Origin: Somniosus microcephalus
Lineage: Eukaryota
Reading direction: 5' to 3'
Length of the DNA stretch: 64,000 bases
NCBI GenBank assembly: GCA_052327205.1
Contig: CM126213.1
Span: forward strand, 111,538,001 to 111,602,000
Below the pieces are notes generated by a model, which saw nothing but the letters and a program-made list of their open reading frames with translations, made no database searches and was not told the origin of the DNA. How positions within the stretch are numbered: the stretch's first letter is position 1; each line of letters opens with the position of its first letter. Positions 22,801 through 61,304 of this stretch are shown piece after piece. The position numbers and the translations under genes are program-made.

Positions 22801-25800
22801 AAACTTACTCATAAAAAAGCACAAATCACCATTGCCTGATTATTTTTAATGCATGCATATCAATATTATTGGATTTAATTTACTAATATCACGCTCATGA
22901 TGGCAATGAAAATGGTGTGTTTGCATTTACTCAACAGTATCTGAAGCAATCTACAATAGAACTGACACAGGGACAAATGGGCATGAAGGTAGTCAAATCA
23001 GATATAATATTATAATGTCTGAATGGGCAAATTTAATTTGTTTGTGTTGTAAATGCCATTTTTGTGCATATGCATAGGCTTGAATGTGCACGTGTTCTTA
23101 ATTAATCACACTCTAAATAAATGTTAATAAATCACATTAAAAGCTTAGATTGTGTGATTTCACACTTTATTCACAAATCAGGGAGAATGTGAATATGCAA
23201 TTTTTTTTTAGTAAATACAGGTCCAGGGTATTGTTTTATTGTATGAATGCAAAGGCATAGTGCTAGAAAAAGAAACAAATTGTTAATTAAAGCATGAGGT
23301 AATTGTTGGTTTTACCCAACTCAATGTCCTCTATTCTTCAATGATGCCTGCACATTCTTGCATAAGTAATTAGTAGACACTACAGTGTACAGTCCCTGAA
23401 TTAGCACATGTAGTGTTGCTTTTGAAACTGATATTAGCTTATTATAATATGGAATTCTATTGAGGAATTGGTGGTCACTTGGTGGCCAAGCAATCAAGTA
23501 TTTTAGTAAAATAACCAAACCTTTGACTTGATCAAAATAAAACTAACTATAAGAAAGGCTAAATGGGTCAGCTGATCTTTTCCTGTCCTTCATTTTCACA
23601 TGTTTATACGTACACCTAACAGCAACTTAGTATGCATACCATGTCTTCAGCAGATACTTCAATCATTTCTGAAAGAGCATTGTTTGTCCTTCTTGTAAGT
23701 AGTTATAAGTACAGGTGTGAATGTATAATATTTCACAATGCACTAAACATTGTGTGGTTTTGCAATATGCCTTATTCTATTGCATCAAGGAAGACCATTT
23801 TGATAATTATATTTTAACATATTTTTAACATTTTTACAATAATGTAAAATTATTTTATTGCTCTCAAATATCAAAATATAAACCTTGAACTAGTGTATAT
23901 GAAAAGAAAATATATGCCCCCAATTATTTTATCATGAAATGCATTGGAAAGCACAGATGCATTACTGAAGTTAGCAGTAGCTTCTTTCTAATGTAAAGAA
24001 AATATGAAAAACAAGTTTATAAAATTGAGTATATCATCCTATTTAAAACAGCTATGTATTATCATCTAAATATGAACAATTCTAATTATTTTTATTATTT
24101 CAGTTTTGGTATTACACAGGGTGTCCTGTATTCTGGAGCATATAAATGCATTTAAAATTAAACAAGAAAATGTCAGTTTATCTGGTAACTACCTTACATT
24201 TGTATCACTAGATTCTTATCAATTTTTCTTTAAGCTATTAATTTTAAAACTGCTGAACCTTTATATTGAGAAGCATGACAAGGATATTGTGGATATCTTA
24301 CATTTGATGGAGGAACAGGAATTGTTGTGTGTTCTGTGTGTTGCTCCAAGTATTTCTTGCCCCAGCCGAAAGATCATTGAGTATTACACTGACCTGACAT
24401 TTCCATTTACCACACATCAAGCCATCCCTGTGGCCTTTCTGAGTGAGACTGCCCAATCAGCTGCAATTGGTGCCAAATTACAGACATGTTTTGTGCTCTA
24501 GACTCATAAAACTGGGTTAATACAGCACAAAGTTGTTTCAGTTACAGCCCTTAAGAAGCATCAAATTGTGGGGATGAATCATCCCATCTGTCTAGCCTAT
24601 ATTAGACCCCAGAATAGAGCGGTAAAAGAGCACTACTCTAACTCATCCCAACACTCAGTGCCCAGAATAAGAGGTTTTAAATTATATCAAATTCAAGTGT
24701 TACTTAATTTTATCAAGGAAACTTTTTAAAGAGCCACCATAAGATTAGCTTATTTTTCCTATTCTGTCTAGATGTTGTATTTGAATCAAGCTTTCATACA
24801 TTTTGTTAAACCATTTCCAAACAGTAAAGTTCATATTATGTTGGTCAGATTTAATTTTGTTAGCTCAAAGTGACTAAGAAAATAAAAGACAAATAGATTC
24901 TACTTCTACAATAAACATACATCAAATACTGTCATATATTTTCCATACAAAACGACCCTTCATTTCTCCAGCTACTTATGAGCAACGGCTAATGGTGAGA
25001 CATCTAAGAAGTTAGTTATTGTTTTATCTACTTAACTGTGTTAACACCAACGCCTGATAGTAAAGCTACCTAATGTTCTATATATTCCTGAAGAGAACGT
25101 CTTACAACCAGAAATTATTTTATATTTCGATATTCAAGAAGCAGTGAAGATTGAGTCCATTAATATTTACATAAAGTAAAATCTGTATACGCTGTGCAAA
25201 AGATTGGATTTAAGTTTATTTAAATTAGAACATTAATGATGTTCAGATCTTGCCACTCTTGTTCAAACGTGCACAGATGTAGTAATTTCTTGTTTTGTTC
25301 TTAAAGCTGAATATGCAATGTTCACAAACACGCACACATATAACAATGTATGCGTATATATGGTTTTGACGTTTATATTTGGATCTTCAGATTTAAAATA
25401 TCCCTGAAAGCATTGCTTACTGATCACGTGTGGTTAATGAAAATGTTTTCAACCAAAGTGACATATTTGATAATGTTATTGGATGTTTTGTATGAATGCC
25501 AAAGTCAATGGTTAGAGTTCTGGAACGCTTCGCTCATACCAATTCGGAAGCCGGGTGAAAGACCCTTACTTTATACTTCTCAATTAAGTGCGGGCTATTA
25601 TTTGCAAGTTCATTTCAAAGCAAACGTCTAAAAACTGTGTTTTATTCAGTAAAATTATAAATCTAAAAGGTGCTCAATGAAATGTGCTCAAACATTAGTA
25701 TGCTGATGTTTCTGTATGGAAAGATTGAGCTGATTGCTAAGTTTATTTGTGTTAACTGAGATATACCAAAAATGGTAACGATCTCATTTTAGCTTCAACC

Positions 25801-28800
25801 CAATCTTTGTTTCGTTTTAATAACAAAGTGGAAATGATAAGAAACGACGATCTCGCAAGCGTGACATGAACTGAAAAATTATACCGCCAAAGAGCATATT
25901 GTGACACACTTTAGACCAAAAAGTTTCATTGTATCTGTAAAATTGTGTTTTTAAGTATCGGAGAAAAGTGTGAGTGATCCACATCAAGTTACAGAAATCA
26001 AAATAATGCGAATAGTAACGACATTACCTCCGTGAAATGTACTCCAAAAAAAACTTTACAACATTGTTTTTCATTAAAACGTGTTTGAGGAAATCACCAA
26101 CAAAAAGTGACTGTGCTGGTAGTGATTATGTTAAATTGAACAAGAGCCGTGGTATCTCGGAAAATAATTAAATAATTTACACTGTTACAAGGCAAAATAT
26201 TTTAGATGGCAACTTCTACTCCTGCAACTCAATTACAGTTTATCGATAATAAATGTAATATTCGTAACATTATCACTTTATTTCCTCTTTATACAATATT
26301 CAGTGACTTATCAGTTGCATTGATTTATATTGCTACATTTCACTTGTTTTAAATGAAGCAACAGAAACAATCTGTATATACTGATGGGACGTCTAAACAA
26401 TGCAAGATTAATTTCAGCGAATTTAAATGGTGATGCAATGCATATTTTATCAAGAAATTTGTTGTTTTATTAAATCCTAAGTAAAATACAGTTAATACAA
26501 AATGTGTTAGTTCAACTGTTACACAAAACTGTAACCAGACTTCGAAGATCACTAGATTACGGTTACAGGGTTGGAAACAGGCTGTCATAAAAGATTTGAA
26601 ATAGATAATAATTAAAAATGAAAAATAAAATAAATGTATATAACCTCCATAGACATATACATGTGTAAAATAGACATTGATCTATGTATTTATTTGTATG
26701 AACGTGCATAATTAGAAGGTTTCAAATAGAAGAATATTAAGACAAGTTGGGAGTTTTTGATCATGTGACTACATTTAATCATATATTCTACTAAGGATAA
26801 TGCTTGATATTCTGCAATGAGTTCCAAGATATGAAGGCACCAAAACATCTATCTATAGCAAAGTCTTGATAAAATGAGAAGTTCTCAATGTCTATGGTGA
26901 AACAATACATGCTGCGGCCAAAGAGGCAGCAAACTCTCAGCTACTGCTCTTGTGAATTTTAGACTGAATGTTTCCTTTTAATACAGTACTTTTCGAAAAC
27001 TAGTGAACTGTTTCAAGAGGGAATACTTAAAGAAATTCAATCTCAAGAATGCCTCTGCCCTTTCCCCTTTATTTTACACACAATGGCTTTAGCGTGTTTA
27101 ACAATAGCAATTCCTACTCCGGCAGAGACGTGCTATTTACCGTCCACAACCTGTAACGGCGCCGAACTATGCTTTTATTGTACAAAAGAGCACTTTATGC
27201 TATGGATGTCACATTGTCTCCGTGCACTGTGACCAGCATTTCATTCATCACATTCACCTTTTCTTTGGACAATATTTCTTGCTGTCTAAAGTTGGTTTCT
27301 ATGACACCTGGTCGGACAGTGAGTTCCATCGTGGAGTAACTCTTCAAGCCAGAGCAATGCACCTTATCGTCTCAGCGCCTGTGTGAGTATAAGGACAGCT
27401 TTATTTATGTTGGGGGCGCTGAAGAATTCAGTATCATCCCGGGTAGGGACAATGACTTTAGGAAGATGTAATCTTAAACCCAGAATCACAGGTTCGTTTA
27501 CTGCGACTACCGTAGAAAGCAAAAGAGTGGAATCTTCCAACCCAGCTACGGAGCTTGGCTGCCGCCTGACGTCTTCAGTGTGTCTGGCTACAGACTCGAG
27601 GCGTAGCCATCGGACACAAGGGAAGTCAACCTTCGTTTCTTTGTATTTGTTATTTCCTACAGTCTGACGTGTGATTAAATATTTGTTTTTTTTTTACTAA
27701 TCCGTGTACAATATGTGAAAGCATTACAGTTTGCACGAAAAAAGGCGGTATTTGCAAATTGTTCGAATTTGAATAATGGCTTCATTTTATAGTAAAAAGG
27801 GGCTTGATGGTAACATGAGACGTGTATTTGTACGGCAATCAGTTGTCTAAACACTTGAATGCCCTAATGCTGCAAACAGGCGTGGGACCAACTTCTAAAG
27901 TTTATATTTGATATAGACTTTTCAATTACATAACATTTGGACAAATAGATATCTGATAGGAACACTGCCATGTTCCCTTTGCCTCTGAAACTCGCGGGTT
28001 ACTGTTGACGTGTTAAGAATTGTCACCGCCTGCTTCTGACGTTGTGAATGTTTTTGTTTCTGTAACCTGTTTTCACTCCAGCAAGACAAACGTTTCTTAA
28101 AGCACAGCTGTATTGACGTAAACATATGTTAGTGCATTTTACTTACACAGCAAAGCAGAGAAAACAAACAGCCAGAATAAAAAAGCAATTTGGGGGGTTA
28201 TTTTAGAGATTATTAGGGTTATTTTGGCTCCTGCAGGTATATAACATTTCCCTGTAATGTTGAAATGTGAACTGAAACAATTCCTGAATATCAGCACTTG
28301 TAATTATATTAGTTTACTTAGATCTTTCTTTTGGAAACCTGGGAACAAACCAATTGCATAACACTTATTGTCGACACCGCGTAAATCTTCCATTTTCTTG
28401 GACTGATTTTTTTGCCACTGTATAATTACTGTAACTCTGTCTGAACTGTTTACTAGGCGATATTATATTTGTATTATTTTTGAATTATGTATGTCAAAAT
28501 AAATATAATTAATAGCAATTAAGTGAGCATACAAGAATATCAACGCATGCAGAAAGCTTTAGGAAGAATATTGTTACGAAGTTCGAAAAACAATAAAAAA
28601 TAATAATAATCAATAGTGTCGATATTTTAATATTGTGGTCGAAAACCAGATTTTCTGCAAACTTAGGTTTTACTTCGTTAAACTGTAATGTTAACTGTCA
28701 TAAGTATTCGTATAACAACAATCTATTTTAACACTATGTTGCCAGCCGATTGTAAAATTCTTCAGAAATGCTACCCTTTTCTCCACATAGAACGCAGTTT

Positions 28801-31800
28801 TCTAATAGTTACACGGCGTTCGAACAAATGTAGGCAATCTCCAAACGGGCGCCGTGTATCTCTGCAATTAAAAGTTTAAAATTAACCAACAGGTCACAAA
28901 GCAGTTTACAATAAACACATGCCGAAAAGGACTGTTTAAAGGCATTTGTTTCCGTGTCAGTCGGTTTCTTATCTTTGGGAAATACATCGTCGTAAAAGTA
29001 TTTATTTCGATCCTATTGCCTCAAAATTACAATCGACTATTTGACGGTGCACATTTGGGATGTACATGGGAACAAAATCTTCCGAATTTTGTGAAAGTTT
29101 CACACGTGACCAACATTTTGGAAACACGTGATTATGTGGACCTTAAGCACTTTTTAACATATTTGTGTGTCCGTGTCTATCCATCCGCCTCAAAAGCAAG
29201 GCTTTTATAGTTTAAATACGTATGAAAACCACTCACTATGTTCCTCGTCTGAGTATAAAATATCAAACATTCCAATCAAAGCACTTCACCAGTGCTGGAG
29301 GATCGACATTGTATCGCCCTCTTAACTGCTTTGATAAAGCAAATACAATATACAGACGCATTCTTTTGAATAAAACAATATCAATTTCTTGCCGTCTATG
29401 AATTGCAAATATATTGTGTTAATTTGGACTTTGATTAAAGACCGTAGTGCGATCGCAAATCACCTTTTTGTCTGACTTGATGCTTGGCTAAACCACAGAC
29501 TAACATTAAACAAGATCACACTCAAGTTAAGAAAATATTGTTATTTTTCTTTAATTGGGACAATTGGACTCCCGCGTGTTGGAGCTGTGGTTTTAACCAA
29601 CGGAACGGAAAACTGGAATGACACCACTTTGCACTTTAACAATCGGATTACATCAGGGTACAAGTTGTTTGTTTAACCCGACAGCTCTCTGCACCCCGTC
29701 GCATGCTTTACACACTCATTAAAACGATTATTCACGACCTGTCGAGTGTTTTCTAGTTCATTCACACGACGCCCTCAGCATTAGCTCAACCTATTGGGCC
29801 GGCGAGTCAGAAGAAAGAAAAGATCCGCACTTTCAAACAGCGGTGCCCAAACCGAGCTCGGACTCTACAGGTTGTAGTGGCTCACAGGAGACCAACACAC
29901 ACACACACACATAATGCCCACCTTCCTTATTATTGCAGAAAATCGGGTTGTGTGCAGAAATAATATTTCGAATAATGTACTATGAAATATACAGTTACCA
30001 CAAAAACTGCAATACACTGCAACAGGTTATCAATCAAATATTCTCAATAATACTTTCTGTTTATGATTTATTCAATGTTTATGCTAATTGCTAAATAGAT
30101 TAATAAATAAAAGGCAGTCTGCGTTCAACATTTTAGTTCAATGTACTACATCAGAGTGATTTAAAAATGTTTATGAGGAGTAAAATATACTAAGATTGAC
30201 AATTTATAAATCCATCAAATCTAGCTAATGAATCGATTAATACTTGTCATTTAAAACAAACAATAAGATAATTGAAAATATTTAAAGTGACGGAACCGAA
30301 ATAAAATGAAGCAGGTATCCGATTGTTGATTAAACAGCAAATACAACACAGCAAACGGGCACTGTTTGTTAATACCAACTTTATTATCACCCCGCACAAT
30401 AACAAGTAACACTGTTTTCAAGTGGAAATAATCTTTATTACTTGCTACGGCTATGCGAAGAGGTGGCACATATATTTTAAAGCGACATTTCTAATCATTA
30501 TTCAATAGTAAAGGGTTCAAATAAAGTGCTTTAGATTTTAACTTTCTGCTTGAAAACTGCACATTTAGATTGAAGCGCTATCGTCCATTTACTAAACACA
30601 ATCAGTGCTCCCAACAATCTCCTGCCGATATAATAGGTAGTTAAAAAAACACATATGTGACACGTTCTCTCAGATTATAAGAAGTTTGTTTCAAAACAAT
30701 ACGGTAATATTAACACAAGCCAATGACTATGTAGGTAATTACGTAAAAGTTTTCATAAATAGATAAACACGCAAATCAATACAAACCAAACCTTGTGTAA
30801 TTTGTGACCAATTCCTGATAAATGACTCATTTTAAATGTGTGGTTGACATGTTTACGCATTGCTATCCACAGTCGTTTTTTTTTTAGCACTATGAACGTA
30901 TTTTAAATATCAAAGCCGGTTTCAGCAGTAGTTTATTGTAACCAAGGTGAATGAGTAATTTAGTATAAGCTTGATACAAAAAACAACGATTATTTCTTGT
31001 CTATGCGATCGCCATTTATTGAGCAGATAATTTGTTGTACTCTGTGTTTCAATAATAATTCTAAGTATCCTGAGTTACACAACTCAATCTGTTAACCATC
31101 CTCGAGTTTTGGTATTTAATTTCGGTATTGGGTTAATATGAATGTGTTCAACACAAATTTACTTTCAGCGACAGTTTTTAGCCAAATGTGTAATTTATAT
31201 CAGGTTGATTGCGAGCTACTAGAAAGTGTTTTTTTGTGTTTTTCAACAGTGGTACATATAATTGTGTGCACCAGTCCGAGGTTTGATGTACATTAGTTTC
31301 CCATTCGGAATCGAACGTTTCTTACACGCTTCCGCAGATAAATCCCCACCGAGTCCCAAATGGTTTACACAATGTAATTACATAGGAGTGCATTCTCCAT
31401 TTCCTGAACATATAAACTAATATCAGAGTAGTAAATTCTTATTTACGCGATGTCAATATTGCTTTAATATTGGCATTACTCAAAACGTGGGGTGTTTACA
31501 GAACTTTGTTTTACAGTTTGGACCATTCCATGTTTAAGTTCATTTTCAGACAAAACAAAATGCCTCCAAAATGTTTATTTTCTCTTTTTGCCTCAAAAGT
31601 AGAATCTAATAACATTGAACGCGTTTACGTGGAAATATATTTGAATCTCTTTTAAAGGAAGTGAAGTATGACATCTTTCAGAGAAAAAGGGAAACAGTTA
31701 CATATATAAATTAATTTTAGCGAGAAGGAGAATTGAAATGAATCCTAGGAGATAATTATTGTAAAAAAAATGACAGGATGCAGCAACTGTTAATGCACAA

Positions 31801-33608: not shown

Positions 33609-33768
33609 CGGGTTCCGTTCCCACCGGCGCTAAAGTTCAGTAGTGTAAATCTGGAACCCGATTCTACTCCGAGCGATGTAGAATTGAGTCCACTCCTGGC
33701 TCCGGAGTCAGATCGAACTCCTGACTTCGGATTTACACTACACGGTTGGAGTCGGTGAGAAGAGAACC
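33609..33768. repeat. Nested inverted repeats (multi-stem hairpin, MITE-like remnant)
   Basis: CGGGTTC..CACCG pairs with CGGTG..GAACCCG; GTAGTGTAAATCTGGA with TTCGGATTTACACTAC; ATTCTAC with GTAGAAT; TCCGGAGTCAG with CTGACTTCGGA. Confidence 0.65.
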
Positions 33769-36700: not shown

Positions 36701-39699
36701 TTACATATCGCAACCAAATAAAAGTGATCACACATTCACATTTTGTGTTATTTTCGAAGTGAAAGTGTCCCTCACACAAATACGTGCAATGCTCAATACT
36801 GAGCTACCTTGGACTCATGTGAGGAGCCCAGCTTCATGTTTGATATACTTCCGCTTTGAGATGCATTAATAGTAACAATGTACAACATATAGTTTGGCTT
36901 TTGGATTTTTTTCTTAGAACAACCCAGTCATTTCAACATATTTTCCAGGTATTTAGCAAACTTGAAAAATAAACCATTACATTCGAAATGCTGAATTATT
37001 TCAGCATAGAATTGTATTTCGAATCTATTAGTTAAGAGAAGTTATTGTTCTGATCACTGGGGAATATTTGATTTAAAAACTTATAGCTAACTAGGAGTCA
37101 TACATACAGCATCAGTTAATCGGCCTGCCTCGCTTTTAACATGTATTGTTATTGCTAAATTTCACTGCCAGTGGATTTGATCTGCTTTAGTGTAAGGGTA
37201 ATTGGAGATCTGATGTGTTTTCATGTTGGATGTTCGCTCAATCACAGCCGAGTATTTTCGGGACCAGAAATACTGTTGCGATCCAGTTCCCCTCCCAATC
37301 CGTCGACACACAAAGCGACTTGACAATAGAATAGTAACACAGTTGCGATATTAAATACACGGTTTCCTTTTGTTTGGATCACCCGCCTTCTGTTGTACAT
37401 AAGTCAGATTTATACCAGATTAGTAAAAACTTGAGAATTTCTAGTCGGTTGCAAGTAATCATGAAAGTATTTTGGTGCGGATTCTGACAACCTTATTAGA
37501 AATACTTTGTGGGAATTTGTATCGTAACCATGCAATTTTAAATTTGGGAATAGCATAATTTCTTTAAATTATATAATCTGTAAAACTACGATTTTCTGCT
37601 CATGGTGGTAATTAGAGCGTTAGATTAACTAACGCGTTGGTCACAGTGTCTAGTTAAATCACATTTCAAGTAAAACAATGAAATAAAGACTGTGCAACGC
37701 AATAACACATATATATATATATTTCAAACAATCTTCGCAAACTAACGCCGAATTATAACAGTTAAATAATAAATATACTGTGGACTTACCAAATGCAAGA
37801 CATTGCATCTCGGCTCCACCTCCCGCCTCTGAAGTTTCACTGACGTTAAGACAGAAGAAGGCTGCGATTTTCTTCCCGTAAAACGGCAGACTTACACTTT
37901 ATGAAAAACCTTTAAACTTTTAACCAAATGTATCATGTTCTTTTTAAAGTTACATTAAGGTTAACTATCTAACAGGACCACAGATCTGAAAAGCACCGGT
38001 GCCTTTAAGCTGTGCTGTAATAAAATAATCAGCACTTAATAAAGACGCTATGTATTTTTTTGCAATAGGCTGTACACAGCATATTATCAACAGATAGATT
38101 AACTTTATTTTCTAGTTCCGGACCGCTGGTTTTGAGAGAAACGGGCTATATTTTCTCCGTAACACGTATGGAGCAGTCAGCGGCACGGATAACAGCCAAC
38201 GTCACTGCGTCTTGCCACTATGTAAATGAACCTTCACGTTTCTTTAGCAGTTAAAAAAGACTATTATTAATAGATCCCTACAATTGCTCCTCGCAAACTC
38301 TAGTTTCTCTTTCCAACTAAATTTGCTTGTATTTAATTCGCGAGACACACTTCCTTCTTTCCTATAACCCCGCTTAACTTTGGAGCGATAACATCTAGAG
38401 CAGAGATTCATTTTACTTCGGGCCTATTGTGAGAGGCACTGGCCTTATTGCATTACTCGTGGGCATATTTCATGCAATACAAGGAGAACAAATAAGGAAA
38501 ACACCCCGCGCAGGCCTACAGGCGGATCGGATTTGCCGGAAATGTGTTAGCAAAGGTTTTCTCACAATATGGTATCTTCCGTGTCGAGATGTTCCCTATT
38601 ATCATAAGGATCTTTAATATTTTTATTTATAAGTGGCATTACCAAAAGGACAAGTAATAGTTTCAGAATCCTTGCGTAAGTTAATCTGATCTTGACTGAA
38701 ATAACAAAGGCACAAAGCATCCATTTATACAGGCTATCATTTATACCCCAGATTAGGTGAGTTCCCTTTAAAGCAAATAATAAAGTTCTGTTTCTGAATG
38801 TTCAAGATGCCCAAAGTACACGCGGCACTTGGCAGCTTTCAGTTCCAACATTCATTTGGCTTCACAGGCCTTGCGCTCCAATATAATTTTAAAATTAATT
38901 TGGCATTTCGTAATAGTAACTTGCCGTCATTAGAATATTTCTGGCAACAAAATATTGATTTATAAACTTTCAACTAGGTTTCCAGGCGGAGCGTTTTTTT
39001 AAAATCACGTTTAGATTTTATATTCAGTATTATGGGATGCTTTGGATTGTTAATATATTTTTCGAAGACTATGGATTGTTTCAAAAATGCAGCGTCCTTG
39101 TAAAATAACAGACCTACACGCTCAATGAAACCAGATTTAACGTTCAGATCAAAATTATACCACAGTAGCAACAATATTGTTTTGTTAAATAGAAAATATC
39201 TACACCAGCGTGTCCTGTGCGATTTACAATATAAATAAATGACACATCAAGGATAAATGGTTTAAAGAATATCACAATAGTGAAATAAACGTTGATAGGA
39301 AATTCTTTTAGAAATGATTTCCAACCTATTGTTTATTTTAAAGTATATAATTTGGAATATGCTGAAAACTGAACGGTTCTGAAGACACATTGTGCGATTA
39401 TATAAAACATCTATTAAGAACTGTAACAAATATTTTCAATTAAAATAATTGAAGATGGTAATTAAATGGTAACCTAACTCAAATACTGTACCAAAGATTC
39501 AGGTTAAATATGGGTGACTATAATAGGATCATTTAGGCCTAGAAAACGTGGACTTCCATTCCCAACTCTCTGACAGACTCTCGTCTCTTTTAGACGGGGT
39601 TCAGGAATGCACGCGGTAGGAAAGCCACCATTTAAAATATTACTGCAGATAACTATTGCATTTAGTCGTGATAAAGAAAAGGACAAGATGTCAACGTTT

Positions 39700-40583
39700 C
39701 TGAATGTAACCTATTTTTTTTATTTCGGTGCCTTCTGTATAGTAAACATTTTAAGTGACAACACGGGCATATGATCACAATATCACAATCATGAAATTTA
39801 GAGACGACATTAACAATCACTCAAGGAATTTATGAGGCATTTAAGCAACACAGGTTACACGTCCGCAAAATTTATCTTTTAAGTACAATAGGTTTACACA
39901 TTTCACTACATTTACATAAAGAAATGAAAAGGGACCTGTTAGTGACCACATACATCGAATTATGCACAACACAAACTAAAGGCAATCATCAATTTTGTCC
40001 CCTTCTGATTCTTTGCAGGCAGTGTTGTAAACTGGAATATAGGAATTATTTTCAAAGTACTTGTTCTTTTAAACAAGGAGTGCATTTCTAGCCCCGTCTT
40101 TGGTCTAAAAGTAAACATGAACCATTTTGTAACCAAATGGGAAAAATGACCGAAAGGTTAGGCATATTTTAAGTAAGGTTATGAAATACAAATCAAGCTT
40201 TAAATTTTGATTATTTTTAGTGAAAAAATGTTTCCGCTAATATTGAAATCAGCAGCCACCAACAAAGCCATGATAACTTATAATACTGCAAACATGGAAA
40301 TCTGGTGGAACAATTGAAACATACCTGCCTAATTTAAACTTAGTTGGAATGCAGTCATTTTTAAATACACAGTCTACATTAATTTAACTAGTGGTTTCCT
40401 ATCTAAACCGCCTCAAATTGCACATTGCTGAAATTGAATAAACAAACAACCCTACGGGATTTGACAAAATGCAGACAAAAAAATGGGGACTTGAATAAAA
40501 ATACCTGGGCTTCTTATTTTGAGAATTATTTACAACGCAAATGTGTGTAAAACGTTAACTTACAGTCTTTTCGAAGGGATTTG
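39700..40583 (-). promoter_or_regulatory. FOXG1 3'UTR with miRNA seed sites
   Basis: mRNA-sense sites: ACCAAAGA (miR-9 8mer, 40097-40104), CAGTATTA (miR-200b/c/429 8mer, 40281-40288), CACTGCC (miR-34 7mer-m8, 40018-40024), TGTTTAC (miR-30 7mer-m8, 40111-40117), AATGCAC (miR-33 6mer core, 40080-40086). Confidence 0.75.
39719..39724 (-). terminator. Candidate FOXG1 polyadenylation signal AATAAA
   Basis: TTTATT on the plus strand, ~860 nt past the stop, at the end of a U-rich 3'UTR-like block. Confidence 0.55.
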
Positions 40584-41813
40584 TTAGTGTATTAGAGGGT
40601 TTGAAGAGGGCCCCTGGTTTTGATGTGTGAAGTAATCAGAAAGTCCTCCAGAAAGTCCTGTGGAGAAACTTGGCAAAGAAGGTCTTAGAGACTCACAGGG
40701 GAGAGTTGAAGGCGCCTGTGGAGACGTGGAGGACGCTGTCCTAGCCGTCATTGAAGTGCTGCTTTGAGAAGTCATTGAAGGGTGCGGAACATGAGGGAAA
40801 AAGTAACTCGTCTGTCCTGCCAGCAGATTCACCGAGCAGGGGTTTAACGAATATGTGCCTGAGCACGGAACAGACAAACCACACGGCACCGAGGCAGCCA
40901 AGGCGGCTGCAGCCGTTAGGTGGTGGGTGGCATAAGGAATCTCTCCGTTAACAAGTCTATCTACACTTAGCCCATTTGATGTTGGAAATGAGTGGTTGTT
41001 TGCCAGAGAGTTCTGAGTTAACACCGAGCTGTAGGACATCGGGTGGCTTGGGTAAGGTGAGGTGGTTCCATTATAACTTAAGGTACTGCTGGCTCGGGGA
41101 TGGTGGAGGGATAGGAATGGAGAAACAGGCCAATATAAGGAACCTGCCCTATCCATAAATGTCAGTCCAGTCGAGGTGAGGCGCGCTCCCCGCTTGAAAG
41201 CTAACTTTGCTCTCGATGTTGTGGATCTCCTGCGAAGTTTCCCCGTGGTGCCACCTATAAAGACGTCGTCACTAGATGGATCCAACATCCAGTAGTTCCC
41301 CTTCCCAGGATCATCATAGTGCCTCGGAACTTTTACGAAACACTTGTTCAGACTCAAATTGTGTCTAATAGAGTTTTGCCAGCCTTGCTTGTTCTCTCTG
41401 TAATAAGGGAAGTTCTTCATGATAAACTCATAGATGCCATTCAGTGTCAGTCGTTTTTCTGGACTCTGTCGGATTGCCATCATGATCAGGGCATTATAAC
41501 TGAACGGAGGCTTTTCATATTTGCCATTTTTCTTCTCCCCTTCCTTTCCACCGTCCGCTTCTTTGCCGTCGGCCTTCTTCTCTTCCTGCTTCTCCTTGTC
41601 TTCGGCGCAGGGCGGCTCCGCCGAGCTGCTGTCACTTTTGCTGAGAATATTTTCAGACTTGGACTCCGCCGTTGGCAAAATGTTTTTGTCCTCCTCTTCG
41701 GGGGCCGATCGGTGACGGTTGTCACTTTGCACCGCTTCGGGCACCAGGCTGTTTATGCTGAACGATGATTTCGGAATCATTTTCACTTCTTTCTTATCTC
41801 CCATGTCCAACAT
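40584..41813 (-). CDS. FOXG1: Forkhead box protein G1 (brain factor 1), intronless, 409 aa
   Basis: N-terminus [29 protein letters not shown] (eh1 motif FSINSLV), forkhead domain [31 protein letters not shown]...[23 protein letters not shown]-terminus [27 protein letters not shown] at 41813; the ORF-track start at 41840 is a GTG. Confidence 0.98.
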
Positions 41814-41874: not shown

Positions 41875-41894
41875 GTAGTAAAAAAAAAGAGCCA

Positions 41895-41947
41895 CTACTT
41901 CATGTTCTTAAAAACACGTCGAGCCGAGCCAGCTTGCTGCAATTCAT
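41895..41947 (-). other. Two further short uORFs: MNCSKLARLDVFLRT* (41947-41900) and MK* (41903-41895), sharing an ATGA overlap
   Basis: Minus strand GAAATGAATTGC...AGAACATGAAGTAG. Whether they are transcribed depends on the unmapped TSS. Confidence 0.45.
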
Positions 41948-41949
41948 TT

Positions 41950-42830
41950 CGGACCCTGGGCGCTGGGCTCCAAACACTCGCTGCAACCTTTTCACTCGCT
42001 GCCCAATCGCAGCCCGCACCGCGCCTGTGCGTCGGCCCGGCCCGCAGCCAATCAGCGCGGCGCCCCGCCGCCTCCGCGGAGGGATACAGCCAAAGGGCGG
42101 GAGAGGGGGGGAGGAGGAGGCCGCGTCACTCCGCCTCCGGGCCCACTCTCTCTCTCACCATCGACTCTTCCAATCCCACAATACACATGCATTACATTCA
42201 CCACTCCGCCCGGATAATAGCGTTCGGTACGTCAATATTTTATGTTATTGTTGAAAGTTTGTTTATACTTTCAAGGAAGGGAATTAAAATAGAGGAGGGA
42301 GAGGCGCGGTACTACTTTATATCTCCGAGGGCGCAATCCCAGTTTCCAAAAAAACCCAATAATCTGAAAACTGGTTCGGAATTCGGGATTGATTTATTTG
42401 TACCGGTTTCCCAATGATCACACCCTATTCCCGAGTTGGCGTGTGTTTTTTTGGATGTGCGGGAGTGAGGAGAACTTGGAGTTGATGTAGTGCTGCTGGA
42501 AGTTGTCCTGTGGCAGTCGGACAACAACCGCGGCGAGCGCGGGACCGCTGGAAGCCCCGCCTGATCCGGAGCGCTGCCTCCTCAATCCTCACCCTGTCCT
42601 GTCCAGCCCAGCCCTCCTTACCCTGTCCTGTCCAGCCCAGCCCTCCTCACCCTCGGCCCCTCACACACACACACAGACCCAAATATCCGCGCAATGTGCC
42701 GAGTCCATTAAACCTCCGCATCATTCGCTCCGATTCTTTTCCTGTCAGTCATCTCGGAACCATGATGGCGGATGCGGGCAATCATTTCCAGATTGATTAT
42801 AATTTTATATCGGCCCAAATACAATAAAAT
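41950..42830 (-). promoter_or_regulatory. FOXG1 CpG-island promoter
   Basis: GC/CpG-dense DNA with CCAAT at 42003 and 42048 (plus strand), GC boxes (CCCCGCC 42063, GGGCGG 42095), a half-CRE CGTCA near 42124, and no obvious TATA box. Confidence 0.8.
42586..42653. repeat. 29-bp tandem duplication (~2.3 copies) in the upstream promoter
   Basis: ACCCTGTCCTGTCCAGCCCAGCCCTCCT(T/C) starts at 42591 and again at 42620. Confidence 0.9.
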
Positions 42831-45689: not shown

Positions 45690-46220
45690 AACACACTTAA
45701 CTGACGGCAGGCGCTAATAATTAGTGATTGAAAGTTTCTGTATTTAGCGTGCTGCATGTTTCTTAAGTGGTTTTTGTTACAGGTTATATTATTAGGTTTG
45801 CGAGAACAGTAGTGAACTAAACTTCCCAGTTAGTGGTCTTCGCACCAGGAAAGTGTTACTTGGTGCAGCAGCCCTGCCTCGTCACTCATTAACTCCCTGT
45901 AGGTTGTCAGCGGCTGCTCAGCACAAAAACCAGCACCAAACTAAATTAAGAGCCCGATGATTAAGATGAACGTTTACCGGCGCTGTCATTTGCAGCATCT
46001 TTCCATCATAACATTGTGTCACTGGGAAATTCTCTTGAAAACTGCAGGAAAAAAAGCACACACGCAAAGCTAGAAGAGAGCCGCTTATTCCGAGTTTGCT
46101 CCAATGCAAACAATAATGTCATGTAAATAGTAATTGTAACTGACTCAATCTGGCATCACTCAATGTATTTGAAAATAAAAATGGAAACAATATTTACGCA
46201 ATGTCAGAGTAGTGTCTTCA
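45690..46220. promoter_or_regulatory. Candidate conserved forebrain enhancer ~4 kb upstream of FOXG1
   Basis: Non-repetitive block with homeodomain (CTAATAATTAG, TCATTAA, TAAATTAA, TGATTAA), TALE (TGTCAG, CTGTCA), Sox (AACAAT) and Fox (GTAAATA) motifs. Conservation was not tested. Confidence 0.5.
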
Positions 46221-49200
46221 ACATAGGATTGGGCGAGTAGGCTTTGGTGTATAATCCATAGTCGAAATGCAGCAAATAATCTAAACAACTGTTTACATGA
46301 CAACATGGTTATCCATGAAACCTAAGTTGTTCTTTTTGTTAGCCCCAAAATACACTTTTTAAAAAGATTCATGTCCTGAGGTGCACATGTAAGCGAGATG
46401 GAAAACGCACGCACCACATTTAGGCCGTGATGAACAGTCGCTGTGAACCACTGAATTTACGTGGTGTATTGAGCTTACATCTCCAAATCCTTGTAAACGC
46501 GTCTCAACAGACTGAATAATTTACTGTGTGGGTGTTGAGTAAATCTGAGTCGGATCTCGGTATTCAGAATAATATATCACGCATTTGCACTGCAGAAGGT
46601 CTTGGCACTGAAAAAAAAGATTAACCCAGAATGGATACAAGTTCATGATGAAAGAGAGAAACTTATTTGCAACCTGCTGAACCTGGCGGAGGCAAACATA
46701 AATAATATGGTCCGACTCAGAAATAAATAATGTTGGTGAATAATTATCTAATTAGCTAAGCGCTTTTGTGTTTTTTTAGAACAATCGCCCGAAAGGATCA
46801 AATATCAAAATGATTTATTGCTGTTAATACTTTTGATTTAAGGTTGAAGTGAGCTTGAATTATGCAGCCGAACAGAACTGTATAGCAAAAATACATTTTA
46901 AAGGTTCCCATTGTTGGTGAACCTTCCGAATAACCAAGAGTTTTGGATGCTGCAAGAGTGTAGGGAATACGTACACTCTGTGATTTACAACCTTTTATAT
47001 CTTAAAATTAGCAATCTTGAAGATTCCAATCAATGCTTGCATGCAATATATACTAGAAAAATAAGAAGAAATGTAGGACCACTTCATTTATTACTTGGAA
47101 GTACTGAGTGCCCATTTCCGTTCTGAACCTGTACTCATTTAGTGACAGAGCGAGCTGGATGGTCGGAATGGCTGTTTGTTGATTCCACATTATTGTGTTC
47201 TTAAATATTGAAAACATTTGCTCCAGTGGCTGCAAAATCAGATCGCTTTTCTGCGGAATCGGCCACAAACGGCGATTAACTATAATTAATTGCATTATTG
47301 ACTCTCGCGTTTAAGCAAACCATGTTAGGCTCAGAGTTAAATTGTTTCGATAAATATGCCGCATGTGCCATGTATTGTTTAAACCACCCCGATGTAAAAC
47401 ATAAGCGACGACTCCTCCAGCGTCTTCTAATATTTATTCATCTGGGTTTTGTTCTCCGGCGGGGAGTACTTTAATTTAAATTAGAGCAATTTATGTTTGG
47501 AAGTGTTCAAATAAATAAATAATCTAAATGTATCCCAAATATTATTTTGTTATTTGTCAAGTCCCTGAATCCTTTAGTTTATTTCGATTTGTATTCTCTA
47601 ACGGGAACTCAGTAGTAACATTTTCTTCCAGATATGCGATAATGCAATTTGCAGTATTCTGTCACAGCTAAACTGTAAAACTCCATAGGCTGACAATGTG
47701 AGCTGGGTGTTTATTTTATGGGAGCGCTGCGTTGGCAAAATGATTTCAAATATTGACTTTCATCGCGAATGGTGTGACGCCTCGAATTTAAACAGGTAAA
47801 ATAATCTTTGACGTTTTCCATCGTAAGGCGAATGCGTTTCAAATGAAAAAAATTCTATTTATAAGACGGTCGACGTAACCATACAAAAATGTATAATTAC
47901 ATTTATTTTTGCTTATACCCAAATTGTTTTTAATAAAATGATGCAATCTTTTGAGCAGCAACCTTCAAAACATCGCCTCTGGCTAAACGTGCTTCTGTGG
48001 AAACTGCGACCAAAGCAGAACGCTTTAACAGACAATGTGTTATTTCATTCTGATACCGTTCACAATATTTTTCAATCTATATTAAATATTACTTGTTTAG
48101 CATCTTGTCTAGCGCAGTGTTACAAGTATTTTAAACTGCAATAGGACCGCACAAAGAAACTACGGACAAAAATCAATCCCTATGTAAACAATACTGTATC
48201 AACTGTATTGACCGAACCGTTCCTACTTTCACAAATTCTGGTGGAACTTAATTAATACCACTGTTCGTAATAGCAGTTGTTGTGGAAATCGATCTTTTAA
48301 AAGGAGAAAATCTTTAATTTTATGTATGGTTTTGACTTCAATAACTTGGCCGATAAAGTGTGAAAATTAATTGTAATGACAAGCTTGCAGTTTTAATCTC
48401 CCGTGGCCCACTGTGTCTCCTCGTAGCAGCTTTTTGTTTCCTTGTGTTTATGCGTACTCAGTTGTGCCGGGCGGGACTTGGGGGAAAAAAACAGATTGCC
48501 TGAATAAAACACTTCCATTCCTATATTCGGTGTTTAGCGTTGTTACGTGAGTTACTGTCCCGGAAATTGAAGCTTCCTTTTTAAGCTACAGTTTAAGAAA
48601 TAATTAATATTTTGTGTAAGTTTCCGCATGCGGTAATATTGGCTCCATGTTACTTTGGTATTTTATTTATAGGTGATTTTGATAATTATTCTCATTTGCT
48701 GATTCGTTCGTGTTGGTGTAATTTGCACAAGGCCAATATGAATAATTATAAATATTAAAATCGGGTTCCATCTGCAGCACAGCGAATGTCAGACTGGCGG
48801 TGACAGCGCTTTGTGTTATATCTACCTATAGCAGTTCTCCCTCAGCACATATTCCAAATGAGCTGCTTGTCTCGACACGCTCCTGTTGCAGTCTGTGCTG
48901 AGAGTACACAACATAAACAAAGCACTGCAACTACCTCCACATCATTGCCGCTCCAGCTTTCCGCTAAAACAGTCCATCCCTGGCTTGCAATGCCACGAAT
49001 GATACAACAGACAACGATGCATCATTTACGACATATTCATATCCTTTATTATTTCCTATTGGGATATAAACTTTTGTTTCCCGTAATCTACGAACCAGGC
49101 ACTCCAAGCATCCTCGGCGGAGTCATATAGATTGAAATATTAGGACTCTATGAAATATAGCTGCAAGTAACCTGTAATTATTCGAAATGCAAAAAAATAA

Positions 49201-49617
49201 AACAAACAGCACAAATTTTATTGTAACAATTTACAGAAAGTCGGAATGTGTTTATATAAATAACGAAATCTCAAAATTGAGAATCTACCATAGTACAACT
49301 GGGAACTAATTTAACGTTCTGACGGCTACCCAAGCCGTCAAATAGAGGCTTAAAGCAGAGTGACTAAATTAGGTAATAATACAGTAGTAACACAATAGCT
49401 AAACTATTACTTGTTGACGATTTGTAGCGTTGAATTAAATCGTTACAAGCGTTATGTAAGACACATCGAGCAAAACAACGTTTGCTTTTAGCACAACGCA
49501 CCAAGCTTCACAGATGGAAACAAAGAGTATTTAAAAAAACGGAGTCAGTTGTAAAGTCAGGTTCAATGGTATCCGATACATCTCCAAATGCAATCGACCT
49601 GCTCCCAAGCAATACAG

Positions 49618-49636
49618 GCACGCCACCTAGTGGAAC
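49618..49636 (-). promoter_or_regulatory. CTCF core motif
   Basis: Minus strand GTTCCACTAGGTGGCGTGC matches CCASYAGRKGGCR. Confidence 0.6.
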
Positions 49637-50728
49637 ACCTCACAATTATCTGCTGCAAATTGGAATTTCTACTGGTTGGCGTCTCCAGTCGAACGTATTG
49701 TACATGAGATAAACACAAAATACCGCTAATATGTAATAACATTAGCTTTGATGCTTCATAAATATTTACAGTTTGCAAAAGTAGACGGTGCATATAAAAC
49801 AAAAATATTTAAACAGTCGCATTGAAATTTGTGATGAGCCAGTTCATTTCTTAGCAACCACAGCATGAAAATTGTTCATTAAAGCCCACGGAAAATAAAT
49901 CGTTTCCAAAATCAGCAGGAAAGCATAGAATATGCCAATACAGCTCCTTTCGCTTTCAGTAACCCATAAAAACTTCGCGCTGATTGGTAAATAATAGAAA
50001 ATAAACATTTCCGGGGGAGTTGATATTCACTTTTATATCACACATGCTGAAATACAAATCGTCGAAAAACAATTTGGTTCATTTTTAATTTTTAATTTCT
50101 GCCTGCAATCAAAATAAGGATACCAGCAAATCCGCTGAAACAAAACTCTTGCAAAAGAGGATGAATGAATGGCTAACCATGGATATCATGTTGATCCCAT
50201 TAGTGGTGGAGACCACGGTACTCAGTAACGAGTAAATCACTAGTGAATATTGATTGACCACTTTCTCAAAACTTGAGAAAGCTATGGCCTGGGGACAGGC
50301 CGAACAAGGTTTCCCAATATTCTGCTCCCTCATTCCGACCATTAAACTTATCGGACGGTATATTTACCGTGGTAAATGGATCTTTCTCCATCGTGTCACA
50401 CTCAATTTTGTTCGCATGGCTGATGTCATTGATTAGTTAACAATTGGCACTTTATCTACATCCCTGGTTTTAAAACAATCAGGTGCATTTATTTAATAAA
50501 GATTGAATGTTAATGAAGTTGTCACAGACGTACGAGCGATGTGACTGTTTTCCTGGCTATATTTGCTGCACTTGGTAATGTGAACGACATCAACATCGAT
50601 ATAAACGGAAAGTGTGCCAGAAGCTAGGGGCCTCTTAAAATATCGAATTAATCGAAAATAAAGATTAAAAAATATGAACCAAAACGCCCGATGGCTCTGA
50701 GTATAAATGCACTGTGCGGTGTCGTACC

Positions 50729-50783
50729 TGTAGCGCTTTGGGACGTCCCCGAGTTCGTGAAAGGCGCTATATAAATACAAGTT
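50729..50783 (+). mobile_element. Deu-SINE/L2-type 3' tail fragment with CpGs intact
   Basis: AGCGCTTTGGGACGTCCCCGAGTTCGTGAAAGGCGCTATATAAATACAAGT aligns to 15063-15111 and 6531-6578. Confidence 0.7.
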
Positions 50784-50809
50784 ATTTCTAAATTATTTCT
50801 TTACTCCTA

Positions 50810-51140
50810 ATGCAGACCAAAAAGGTTCCAGGTTGGTCCCTGTTCTGTGCTGAGTAAACTGCAATGTGTGTGTGTCGGGGGGCGGCGGGGTGACCGTATT
50901 GACTATCCTAGGGAGCGGCAAAATCAGACAGGGTTCTCCCACCTGATCACTGCCCAGTGAGCCCTGCTGAAAGTGTGGATTTGGGCTTGAGAACAGATTT
51001 AGGCTGGGTTGTGATGACTCCCATGGGAATAACTTGCCAACACGTTCGGTTCATAACGCGAAGAATTATTGTTTGGGTAAAGTACACGCGGGCTCCCGGT
51101 ACCCGCGGAACTGTACCGCAGGACGAGTCAGAGTTAGAGC
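50810..51140 (+). mobile_element. Old SINE-like interspersed repeat (family not assigned)
   Basis: B-box-like AGGTTCCAGGTTGGTCCCTG followed by AAAATCAGACAGGGTTC...CCAGTGAGCCCTGCTG...GGAACTGTACC. Resembles a shark SINE family from memory only. Confidence 0.4.
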
Positions 51141-51346
51141 ATAAACCTTCTACCAACTCCATGGGTACTTAGGCCATTCATATTTGGGTCTGTAACAGGC
51201 AATTAAACTTCATGCACACATAGAATTTACAAAGTTGCAACGTTTTTAAAAAACCTTTTGTTTTTCAGGATCTATTATTGTGCCACGGAACCGATAACGT
51301 TTAGTGCCCAAGCACGCTTTGTTTGAGTCTACAATCAATTCCATGT

Positions 51347-51435
51347 CATAGAGTCATAACGGCACAGAAGGAGGCCATTCGGCCCATCGAGTCGGTACCG
51401 GTCTCTGTAGAGCAATCCAGTCAGTCCCATCCCCC
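51347..51435 (-). mobile_element. CR1 3' tail fragment
   Basis: CATAGAGTCATAACGGCACAGAAGGAGGCCATTCGGCCCATC matches 55349-55397. Confidence 0.75.
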
Positions 51436-53808
51436 CGTTATGACCTCAAGGTGTGCAAAGAGTTGGAGGTGGGGTGAGGGCGGCGAGAGCAAACAGTTCT
51501 GGTTGGTGGGCTGCTATTCCATCCTATAAAGTTCACCGATAATGTTATTTTCACTGTTTATTATCACTGGATAAACGTGTTATGATTGTATCACAATCGT
51601 CAGTCTTGCAGCGTTGATGTCATTGCACCAAACCACACGGATCATCCTTAACCTCGGATTTCTACCATGAATCCTGTCCCTGAGCAAAATACCCAGCCAA
51701 ATTCCAAATGAAACGGTCTCCGCAAACTCCACTGTATGTTTATTAAAACATTGGTAACACAGGAGTAACTTCAAGGCTGCCGTTTCATTTTGAGATGCAG
51801 ACGACGTTATAGACTCGAAGAGGAACATATGAGATTACTACCTCGGTATCGTTTTAATGTTTTTTCAGGAGACCCTACTAGTGGTTCGATCAAACAAAAT
51901 GTTTCCGTTAGATGAAGCGGTTTCCTTGGATTTTCTTTGGCTAAAAAAAACTTGAAACAAACCCTGTTCATTTTCAGTTGTAAACATTCTACAAGTGCTG
52001 TAAATAGATTACTCTATGCCTGTTGGTGTATTCTGAATTTTATTTCCACTCCCGAGGCCGATGGTAACTCGCTTGAGACTTCCTAGTCAGCCTTACTAAT
52101 GGAAAAAAAACATAATGCAGGAGCGTAAGGTCCTGGGTCCGATAAACAGTACAATCCAGCATTTGGTCTACGCCTCAGTAAAACCATCGCAATTCACCTG
52201 TGTTTTGCCACTAATGGATTATGAAGCATCTTTCCCTCAAAGAATAACATTCTCTCCGATCCGCGCCCTGCAATTTTCGCACTTGCTTTGCGCTTGTGTT
52301 TGGGACTTCTTTCTGTTGGTGTTTTGTGTGTGTGATGAACGGATCACTGGGGAAATAGGTTTTCAATTTGTGTCCGTAATAAGCGATAGTGGTTTAAAGA
52401 ACGGGTGACTCCTTTACAAACTCACTAAAATTGAAATTAACACATTTTTCAGTTGTATAATTTAACGTATGACTTCCGTTGCATTTAATAAAAAAAAGTT
52501 TTGTCGCTGACTGAGAAATCTTTCGTCTGATATTGTTACTTTTGGGCAATTTGGATTAAACGGCATTTTAAAACGACCTTTGCCGAAGCTTTTACAAACT
52601 GCATCCGTTTACAGTCAGTACTGGCGATGCCACACTATAGATTTCTCTTTGGTAACAACCAGTTGGTCCATTGGTTATCTTAACACAGATTAATGAGCAA
52701 TGCTGCGATGCATTTTAACTGGCTCGACCTGTTTGCAAACGTCTTCAAGTTTTCCTTGAGGAAAGTTGTCCAGTTCAGGAAGATTTTCGTCCCTCTCCCG
52801 GTTAGGCGGCGGTGGCTGGAGTGGGGCCGGCTCGGAACCCTGGTCAGAAGCGGGTGTTCCATTTTGCTGTTATAATAAACAAAAGACCGGCAACAAATTA
52901 CACAACTTACACTTTTCTGGCAGGTCCAGAAACATACTAAAGCCTCGTCTGTTTAATAATAGGCTTGACTTTTTTTTCCAATCAAGTTTTTAAAAAATTC
53001 TACAAGAACAAGTCCCCGTTTTCTGCAAAGGCTACTCATAGAATTCACCACTGACATGTACACCACATAACCGCAGTCTTCGCAATAACACAGGAGCTAA
53101 AAGTGACACGAACAAAGCGTGCCGACACCTAATAAATGCTACAATGCCCCTCTTTTTTTTACTGGGATGAGTTTTATTGAGACAACATTTTCATGGTAAG
53201 CAGTTTACTTCTGAGTAATGGACTTCAGGAGGTTGTAAAGCCCATTGCACAATTTATGTCAAGGCTGGAAATTCCAAAATACATCTCCAAAATGCAGATT
53301 TTAAAATAGTTTACAGATTATAGCCGTTTCATAATTAAACACACGAGTTTACAGAATTGAATCAAGTAGGGAAGTTACTGACTTTCAAATGTTAAATTAT
53401 AAGCTGTGAAAAGGACAGGTTCGTGTTAAAGTTGGGACCTTGCCGCACGTTATTCGCTTGTACGAAAGAGCACCTCTCGTAACCAGTGATGCAAAATGTG
53501 ATTTGCAGTTGCTAGTTTCGAATGTGAAACACTTCTCTGGCGGACTGAGGCAGAGAGCACAGATGCCTGTGAGGGTGACATTGTACAACCGCGACCCACA
53601 TTTTCCGTACATCAGCTTTAAGAGTACAAAAAGAGGCGAATTCAACTAAATGCAGTACAAATATCAGATAGGTTCGTATTTTCAAACGGAGACCACGTTG
53701 TTATTTTCGACATATTTTGCGGATTTTGTTAATCGTTAGCCCAACAATTGGGGCCCCGAAGGTCCTGTGATCTCTGTAAATAGGGAAATGTTTTGCTCCG
53801 CGCCTCTT

Positions 53809-53826
53809 TAGCGTCACCCAGTGGCA
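53809..53826 (-). promoter_or_regulatory. CTCF-like motif
   Basis: Minus strand TGCCACTGGGTGACGCTA, two mismatches to the core, in the same orientation as the site at 49618. Confidence 0.35.
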
Positions 53827-55348
53827 CAGTGTGTCTTTGCACAACCCTCTTCTGAAGCCGAACTCGTCCCACTTCTCACTGTGGACAGCCAGACTCCCAG
53901 AGAGATTACCGGCATAGAGTTTATAAAGTCAAAGTTACAGAAACTGGACACAGTGGACACAACATGTTGGGAATGGGTGTAGCATGATGATTTTTAAACG
54001 TAAAAGTTTGGTCAGAATAACAAGGCTACATATTTCATTTTTTAATGTAAAAGGAAATTCAAAAATTGCACATTTTACCACTCTTCTGTTGTTATTCTCG
54101 ACACCAACAGCATCTTCGTTCTTCAGGAAGTCCAGAGCCTCCGTCAAATGTCCTGACCTTCTATAGTCTATTCACCCACTACCTATTTACTTTCTTAATA
54201 ATCCCTTTTAATATTTCAAATTAAACAAATCTATTCGTTTTAATTTTCCTTTTAATTTCAATTTAGCGACACGATTTTCTTCTCGCTTCAGTTCTATGAT
54301 TTTGCTTGTATTTATGATACTATGTACAATGATTTTTTTCATTTCTACGTTTGTATTTAGCCCCCGTTTATCCGCCGTCATACACCTGTTCGCACTGAAG
54401 GAAAGTAAGCGTGTCAGTCCTGACTGGATCCGTCATAGCTACAAAGTAGCGAGCCTTGACAGGATGAAAACAACCTCTGGGTCACAGCACCGTATCAGTG
54501 AGAACCTCGGTCACTTCTAACTGCATTACAAATGTAGATACACTTCACATTTCCGTGGATAATAAGTGGTTTCTGATGCAACAGTCCAAAAGTTGCGGCA
54601 TGGGTCAGGAACCTCCAGGAAGTAGCCTCGCACCAATTTGAGTTGGCACCAGCTGCAGTATAACTCCAGCCTGACGCAAAGCTGGCTGAAAGGTGACCTA
54701 GAACTTCCTGCGAAGTTTGAAACTTAGTATTGAATAGTTTGAAGTTAGGAGAAAGCCAGCACTCCCACCGTGTACTCGTAACATTAACATTAGCCACCGA
54801 TAGAGTGAAGCTCGGCACATGAGCCCAAGCATAAAGATGTTTTGCGGCTGATCTCAGTGCAACTTTAAATAATGCAAAGTGCGCAGTACAACTCCAGCCT
54901 GATGTGAAACTTTGTTTAAAAACTACCCGGATCGACCCATTTGGAAACCTTTTACATTTAGTATGGACTTTTTACAACAGGAAGAGAAAATAGACTCTGC
55001 ACGGCTTCTTTCTCGTGACATTGGAAACAACCTGTCCAGGAATGGAGCTCTGTACACGTGTCCAAACTACAGGCCTTACCAGTCAGGTCTGGCACACTCA
55101 CTACAATAGAGCTCTCTCCCAGCTGGGCAGAGTGCGACATACAATGAGTTGCAGCTAGCACTGCTGGGGATTACACTTCACAGATATTGGTCACTGGCAG
55201 TTATCTGTTGTATAATGGCAGCCTTATCAAAATGCTTACTTTTGAACCTTTTAACCTTATAAGAGAAGTAATGCCCGTTCCTGCCTTCTCATAACCTTCA
55301 AGATTAGCTGAAGGAAACAAAGCTTCATGAATGCATCTAAACGCACAT

Positions 55349-61302: not shown

Positions 61303-61304
61303 GC

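Follow-up and report, generated by a model that had tools for sequence, protein, structure and literature searches.

Deamination of 5-methylcytosine (5mC) in the germline turns CpG into TpG or CpA, a process that is well established. In 2007 Tanay is said to have inferred hyperconserved CpG domains from primate alignments, with low CpG decay at Polycomb targets. DNA methylation valleys, defined by a mean CpG methylation below 0.15 in sliding 5-kb windows, show low deamination, depend in part on Polycomb and TET, and are rich in factor binding sites; 146 of 190 hyperconserved CpG domains lie in such valleys (PMC5806489). Broad non-methylated islands, described in seven vertebrates, cover developmental genes and carry H3K27me3, and are defined by coverage of more than 90% of a gene by captured non-methylated DNA (PMC3583005). 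In zebrafish these islands combine a high CpG observed/expected ratio (o/e) with background GC and so escape island callers; the idea of broad GC-poor non-methylated domains missed by such callers is therefore not new (PMC3583005). The subject of this article is a domain around the FoxG1 gene of the shark Somniosus microcephalus, in a stretch of 64,000 nucleotides (GenBank assembly GCA_052327205.1, contig CM126213.1, forward strand, positions 111,538,001 to 111,602,000), referred to here as the window. From position 24,953 to 55,062 of the window, over 30.1 kb with a GC content of 0.38, CpG is retained at an o/e of 0.89. This domain is most probably the mutational footprint of a germline DNA methylation valley, or broad non-methylated island, around FoxG1.

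A preliminary description of this DNA had placed a sharp switch to CpG-rich sequence at about 24.95 kb, lasting to about 55.1 kb without a rise in GC. Maximum-likelihood change points in CpG fall at 24,953 (support 24,900–25,098; the left edge, downstream of FoxG1) and at 55,062 (support 54,848–55,101; the right, upstream edge), so that those coordinates were right within about 100 bp. A two-state hidden Markov model returned a single continuous segment, 24,953–55,057. CpG o/e is far from flat across the window, being 0.28 in 1–24,949, 0.89 in 24,950–55,150 and 0.36 in 55,151–64,000, where unmasked GC is 0.400, 0.379 and 0.421, respectively. An o/e of at least 0.55 is reached by all 30 of the 1-kb bins inside the domain and by 4 of 34 outside (Mann-Whitney p = 2e-11), while the GC of these bins shows no difference (p = 0.09). 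When repeats are masked, GC is 0.365 in the left flank, 0.366 in the non-coding domain and 0.371 in the right flank, and o/e is 0.22 in the flanks against 0.89 in the domain, that is, fourfold more CpG at equal GC. In AT-rich 250-bp bins (GC below 0.38), o/e is 0.90 in the 68 inside and 0.14 in the 55 outside.

The CpGs of the domain are evenly distributed rather than clustered in islands, and the plateau holds its level right up to both edges. The left edge, where there is no recognised repeat, is best fitted by a step; logistic fits lose 1.6 log units at a scale of 200 bp and 4.4 at 500 bp. Beyond the right edge there are 270 bp poor in CpG (2 observed, 13 expected), followed by CR1 sequence, and CpG stays low past the CR1. 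Matches to a CTCF consensus number 2 in the window against 1.86 expected by chance, and neither is at an edge. One perfect match to this consensus is at 49,622–49,633 (minus strand), 7.8 kb upstream of the FoxG1 start codon. A scan of the window with Rfam gave no convincing family, its two matches being under the gathering score.

Classical CpG-island definitions (GC of at least 50–55%, o/e of at least 0.6–0.65) do not describe this domain. The Gardiner-Garden criteria take in 4,439 of 30,201 bp (14.7%) and Takai-Jones islands 0 bp, in agreement with the earlier expectation that GC-threshold callers would miss it. The sole Takai-Jones island in the window, 58,785–59,506, is a CpG-rich element (o/e 0.97, 61 CpGs) that contains a GGA repeat and is bounded by inverted ends matching perfectly over 16 nt. 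It looks like a young non-autonomous DNA transposon, so that the caller reports a transposon and passes over the FoxG1 domain. The possibility that this CpG-rich spot at 58.8–59.5 kb is a neighbouring promoter was rejected on account of the perfect inverted ends.

In the repeat-masked flanks the CpG deficit per base is 0.026–0.027, compared to 0.003 in the domain, and the excess of TpG plus CpA is 0.037–0.045, compared to 0.020. The flank deficit is about matched by the excess, which agrees with 5mC deamination. Within the domain CpG counts track the local C x G expectation (dispersion 0.79 in 54 non-coding bins), and all NCGN tetramers stay within 1.16 of expectation at most. With counts set by local composition and no favoured context, absence of decay fits better than selection on sites.

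Decay was also simulated with a simple neighbour-dependent model with self-chosen parameters, which ignores indels, turnover and selection. Equilibrium o/e was 0.99, 0.82, 0.67, 0.24, 0.19 and 0.11 at CpG transition factors of 1, 1.5, 2, 8, 12 and 20, so that the 0.88–0.90 of the domain corresponds to a factor of 1 to 1.5, and values of 0.14–0.22 to roughly 10 to 20. Regain to an o/e of 0.87 from a depleted state took about 0.6 substitutions per site, and the fall to 0.77 about 0.02, which correspond to 600 million and 20 million years if a rate of 1e-9 per site per year is assumed. Given the length of the regain, the model suggests that the domain was probably never depleted of CpG, and given the speed of the fall, the sequence is compatible with recent methylation. 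A pedigree mutation rate of 7e-10 per generation has been reported for the epaulette shark (PMC10587355). Static composition and simulation agree with each other and would fit low CpG deamination, and the control offered by repeat copies, described below, is weak.

The FoxG1 coding sequence, a single open reading frame (ORF) of 409 amino acids at 40,584–41,813 on the minus strand, contains a forkhead domain and has a CpG o/e of 0.67. It lies entirely within the hidden Markov segment, so the domain does surround FOXG1, as first described. The protein is 99% identical to FoxG1 of Pristiophorus japonicus and 97–98% identical to that of other sharks and a sawfish, which by itself marks the window as elasmobranch DNA, most likely of a shark; its exact sequence was not found in a protein cluster collection. 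GC-rich patches upstream of the start codon (41,901–42,700), which include two 200-bp bins at GC 0.66, presumably contain the promoter. NCG codons in FoxG1 are not depleted (p = 0.53). The coding sequence together with the presumed 3' untranslated region (39,600–41,813) has an o/e of 0.69 and is CpG-poorer than the remaining domain (p = 0.02); an AATAAA/ATTAAA hexamer occurs near 39,724 on the minus strand in this presumed region. A 29-bp tandem duplication (2.3 copies, 94%) is present at 42,586–42,653, within the GC-rich patch upstream of the gene.

Transposons were said to be excluded from the domain. The repeat list used here was home-made, from self-matches in the window, Pfam, inverted ends and tblastn with 115 LINE (long interspersed element) proteins, and is biased to families with at least two copies in the window; old L2 pieces inside the domain were poorly probed, as the L2 protein search scored 0 of 96 candidates. 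Recognised repeats make up 28% of the left flank and 54% of the right one, compared to 0.9% of the domain, and 3 of 19 recognised elements are inside the domain (p = 0.005). No match to CR1 coding sequence was found inside by tblastn with CR1 proteins. The three remnants inside, which total 280 bp, are a weak CR1-type 3' tail at 47,128–47,210 (minus strand; nhmmer E 0.009–0.047 to three outside copies, with no hits to a reversed decoy), a short interspersed element (SINE)/L2-type 3' tail at 50,727–50,806 (plus strand), which keeps 5 CpGs where outside copies mostly have TpG or CpA, and a CR1-type 3' tail at 51,323–51,439 (plus strand) with 6 CpGs. The domain as a whole is therefore not transposon-free. 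The longest stretch without a recognised repeat, 22,661–47,127, is 24.5 kb, which exceeds the length of at least 10 kb used for transposon-free regions, by the home-made list rather than by RepeatMasker. It is offset from the CpG domain, opening 2.3 kb to the left of one CpG edge and closing 8 kb before the other. Transposon depletion is thus real, but exclusion is incomplete, and the repeat-poor and CpG-rich intervals differ in their limits.

Large LINEs had been noted to resume past about 55.1 kb, and CR1 ORF2 matches do start at 55,375. They belong to a cluster at 55,334–58,038 (CpG o/e 0.24), directly upstream of the right edge, in which three or more CR1 fragments alternate in orientation. 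A CR1 insertion at this edge may have trimmed the domain or may have come after the edge existed.

Repeat copies inside and outside the domain provide an internal control. In the SINE tail there are 5 CpGs to 1 decayed site, compared to 1 to 10 in three outside copies (p = 0.005), a count from which three further, more degraded aligned outside tails were excluded. At other columns the tail is 63–77% identical to the outside copies, which are 71–90% identical among themselves; it is no closer to them and so does not look younger. A metagenome scan with the repeat tail gave 37 loci, of which 33 were aligned, and since these are heterogeneous upstream of the motif they are a poor family reference. 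With columns taken from the 33 loci, CpG is present at 2 of 2 sites inside and at 1 of 10 in five outside copies.

The mouse orthologue provides a comparison with measured methylation. Table S1 of PMC5806489 lists Foxg1 among the valley genes in each of its 21 columns (21 of 21), including sperm and oocyte. That paper's table gives intervals without gene links, and the interval was assigned to Foxg1 by the positions of its promoter and enhancers: the 1.3-kb promoter starts at chr12:50,483,149 in mm9 (PMC6687716, where the printed end figure is inconsistent with 1.3 kb), and the downstream enhancers are at higher coordinates (PMC5740158). The valley extends from chr12:50,472,500 or 50,473,500 to 50,503,500 (30–31 kb), being continuous in 6 of 16 adult tissues and split or shorter in 10; in the same region it is 35 kb in oocytes, 17 kb in E6.5 embryos and 23 kb in E7.5 embryos (PMC5806489). 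Measured from the promoter, the mouse valley reaches about 11–12 kb upstream and 19 kb downstream; the shark domain, measured from the GC-rich patch near 42,050, reaches about 13 kb upstream and 17 kb downstream. Both are about 30 kb long (30–31 and 30.1 kb), with the larger part downstream of the promoter. A human transposon-free region, hs14.37, presumably contains FOXG1 with a similar asymmetry. It is listed at chr14:28,293,645–28,325,108 (hg18), 31.5 kb (PMC2241635, supplement).

The comparison of boundaries with other vertebrates, which had been proposed as a check, gave a size and polarity close to those of the mouse, without homologous anchors at the edges, and since this is one locus it is possible that the match is a coincidence. 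The history of jawed vertebrates spans about 450 million years. It is conceivable, though we hold it only tentatively, that the FoxG1 valley has kept about the same size and placement since the split of sharks and mammals and was never depleted of CpG in sharks, and that shark genomes would carry a sharp-edged CpG o/e map of ancient germline-protected domains. If so, what fixes valley boundaries would become testable without methylomes. Should the match in size and polarity be homology, valley boundaries would have been conserved through all of jawed-vertebrate history, and with shark assemblies they could be mapped at little cost and the sequences that set them could be sought.

Taken together, these observations indicate that the domain behaves like a valley, a class defined by measured methylation and proposed here from composition. 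Its 30.1 kb by the CpG proxy compares with a minimum valley length of 5 kb, and it covers a developmental transcription-factor gene, FoxG1, whose mouse orthologue is a valley gene. In the flanks, CpG would have decayed to TpG and CpA by deamination of germline 5mC, the static pattern being that observed. In the domain, CpGs would have been largely unmethylated in the germline over a very long time and so have stayed close to the level expected without decay, while GC is unchanged. If the mouse is a guide, they may be protected by Polycomb together with TET activity and CxxC/H3K4me3 factors. Few large transposon insertions are seen in the domain, most likely because selection removed them, and short repeat tails would have been tolerated at its upstream end. 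The proposal of a long-lived germline-unmethylated domain reaching beyond the promoter island fits every sequence test, and a valley of equal size has been measured around the mouse orthologue; the mechanism in the shark would be that outlined above. As the class is well known, the domain as such is not surprising. Methylation is global in the genomes of cartilaginous fish, where start sites are unmethylated; the word "valley" does not occur in that source (PMC5437953). Other methylation data for this group exist (PMC10115646, PMC9842680), among them public bisulfite data for elephant shark and little skate, cited in PMC10115646. A literature search turned up no study of valleys at FoxG1 in sharks, nor of shark valleys read from sequence, which, for top-ranked matches with few subscription papers, is weak evidence; a search joining FOXG1 with transposon-free regions or a methylation canyon found nothing.

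Several observations weigh against a germline valley footprint. The contrast at the SINE tail comes from one copy, at sites partly chosen from that same copy, and when sites are taken from the outside copies only it is 1:0 against 1:2 (p = 1), a single site with no power. The CR1 tails have no significant CpG contrast (7:2 against 10:15, p = 0.12). Within the domain the o/e of TpG and CpA is still 1.17–1.18. In the FoxG1 coding sequence CpG o/e is below 0.88 (p = 0.025), and codons ending in C are under-represented before G, 12:29 compared to 97:69 (p = 0.0009, uncorrected for general TpG/CpA bias). Mouse sperm passes the valley threshold only at 50,473,500–50,479,500 and 50,482,500–50,488,500, two 6-kb pieces, and in mouse embryonic stem cells the valley is just 7 kb (PMC5806489). 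Foxg1 is also absent from the shared list of human, mouse and zebrafish valley genes.

Other explanations have to be weighed against a long-protected germline valley. The domain might record a past or one-sided state, unmethylated in one germ line or stage only, such as oocyte and embryo but just part of sperm, or a protection that shrank recently with CpGs still undecayed in a slowly mutating lineage. This is unlikely. The mouse valley of 35 kb in oocytes against 12 kb in sperm speaks for it, as do the 0.02 substitutions per site of the simulated drop to 0.77 and the shark pedigree rate (PMC10587355), but an o/e of 0.88–0.90 is hard to reconcile with lasting partial methylation, since equilibrium o/e is already down to 0.67 at a factor of 2, and the plateau is even as far as both edges. 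It is more doubtful still that methylated CpGs were retained by purifying selection on dense regulatory elements, with transposon depletion stemming from the same cause. Such selection would agree with the strong repeat depletion and with the richness of valleys in factor binding sites (PMC5806489). However, CpG spacing is even and near-Poisson with no favoured context, the presumably neutral SINE tail retains its CpGs, and most bases of zebrafish transposon-free regions are not alignable to mammals (PMC2241635).

Sharp edges could also arise from an assembly artefact or from inserted foreign, unmethylated DNA, which is highly improbable here, as the enclosed gene is an elasmobranch FoxG1 and the repeat tails in the domain have relatives in the flanks. 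The interval 22.7–32.6 kb, which spans the left edge, is moreover partly shared by sequencing runs of two organisms, A (0.44–0.45, two studies) and H (0.29, one study), the shared part being unplaced within it. Runs of organisms B to E, with shares of 0.08–0.13, carry no weight in this respect, and those of F and G (0.97–0.98, one study) may come from the source of the window itself. An ordinary cluster of CpG islands driven by GC-biased gene conversion has in its favour the two bins at GC 0.66 near the gene start. It is contradicted by the composition data, namely equal masked GC inside and outside, an o/e of 0.90 in AT-rich bins and no Takai-Jones calls inside, and is likewise highly improbable.

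Some further elements of the window deserve mention. A PIF/Harbinger-type DNA transposon in the left flank (15,937–20,112, outer limits set by eye) has broken DDE_Tnp_4 and Myb/SANT ORFs on opposite strands and inverted ends, with a CpG o/e of 0.34 and GC of about 0.5. The window starts with CpG-rich pieces at 1–650 (o/e 0.71) and about 1,000–1,250; the former, by eye, resembles the end of a long-terminal-repeat element and is listed among the repeats as an unconfirmed candidate. GC-richer pieces with mild CpG peaks at about 6,820–7,570, 8,750–8,900, 9,170–9,500 and 10,020–10,480 resemble degraded small DNA transposons; no clear inverted ends were found in these four, and they were left out of the repeat count. 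Inside the domain, a SINE-like stretch seen by eye at about 50.8–51.15 kb did not match the candidate copies outside significantly (z 0.6 and −0.2) and was not counted. The CpG-rich part at about 50,810–51,140 may resemble a tRNA-headed chondrichthyan SINE, and no matching copy was found in the window; if a repeat, it would form a small in-domain cluster with the tails at 50.7 and 51.3 kb. At 61,305–61,498 there is a near-palindromic element of 190 bp, whose arms are 55 nt (89%) and 35 nt (83%), inserted at a SINE end, with a sub-threshold Rfam match to mir-196 that probably stems from the hairpin shape.

With respect to known classes, the hyperconserved CpG domains are also reported to have been inferred from sequence evolution alone; the shark domain was recognised from the composition of one genome and not from an alignment. 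Like transposon-free regions (PMC2241635), it has a long repeat-poor span at a FOX-family gene; unlike them, it contains three short tails, and its repeat-free interval of 24.5 kb is shifted against the CpG domain. Broad non-methylated islands resemble it in covering whole developmental genes and, in zebrafish, in a GC like that of the surroundings, and differ in that they were found by CxxC capture in bony vertebrates, whereas the shark domain is known from sequence; the passages of PMC3583005 name no cartilaginous fish, and Foxg1 does not occur in its main text. With valleys and canyons the domain shares its large size, its position over a developmental transcription-factor gene and, probably, low CpG decay. 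Mammalian valleys mix CpG islands with non-island DNA, whereas the shark domain is an even plateau at 35–39% GC with almost no island. It is a clean example, in which GC is unchanged, the CpG plateau is even and an edge looks step-like within a few hundred bases.

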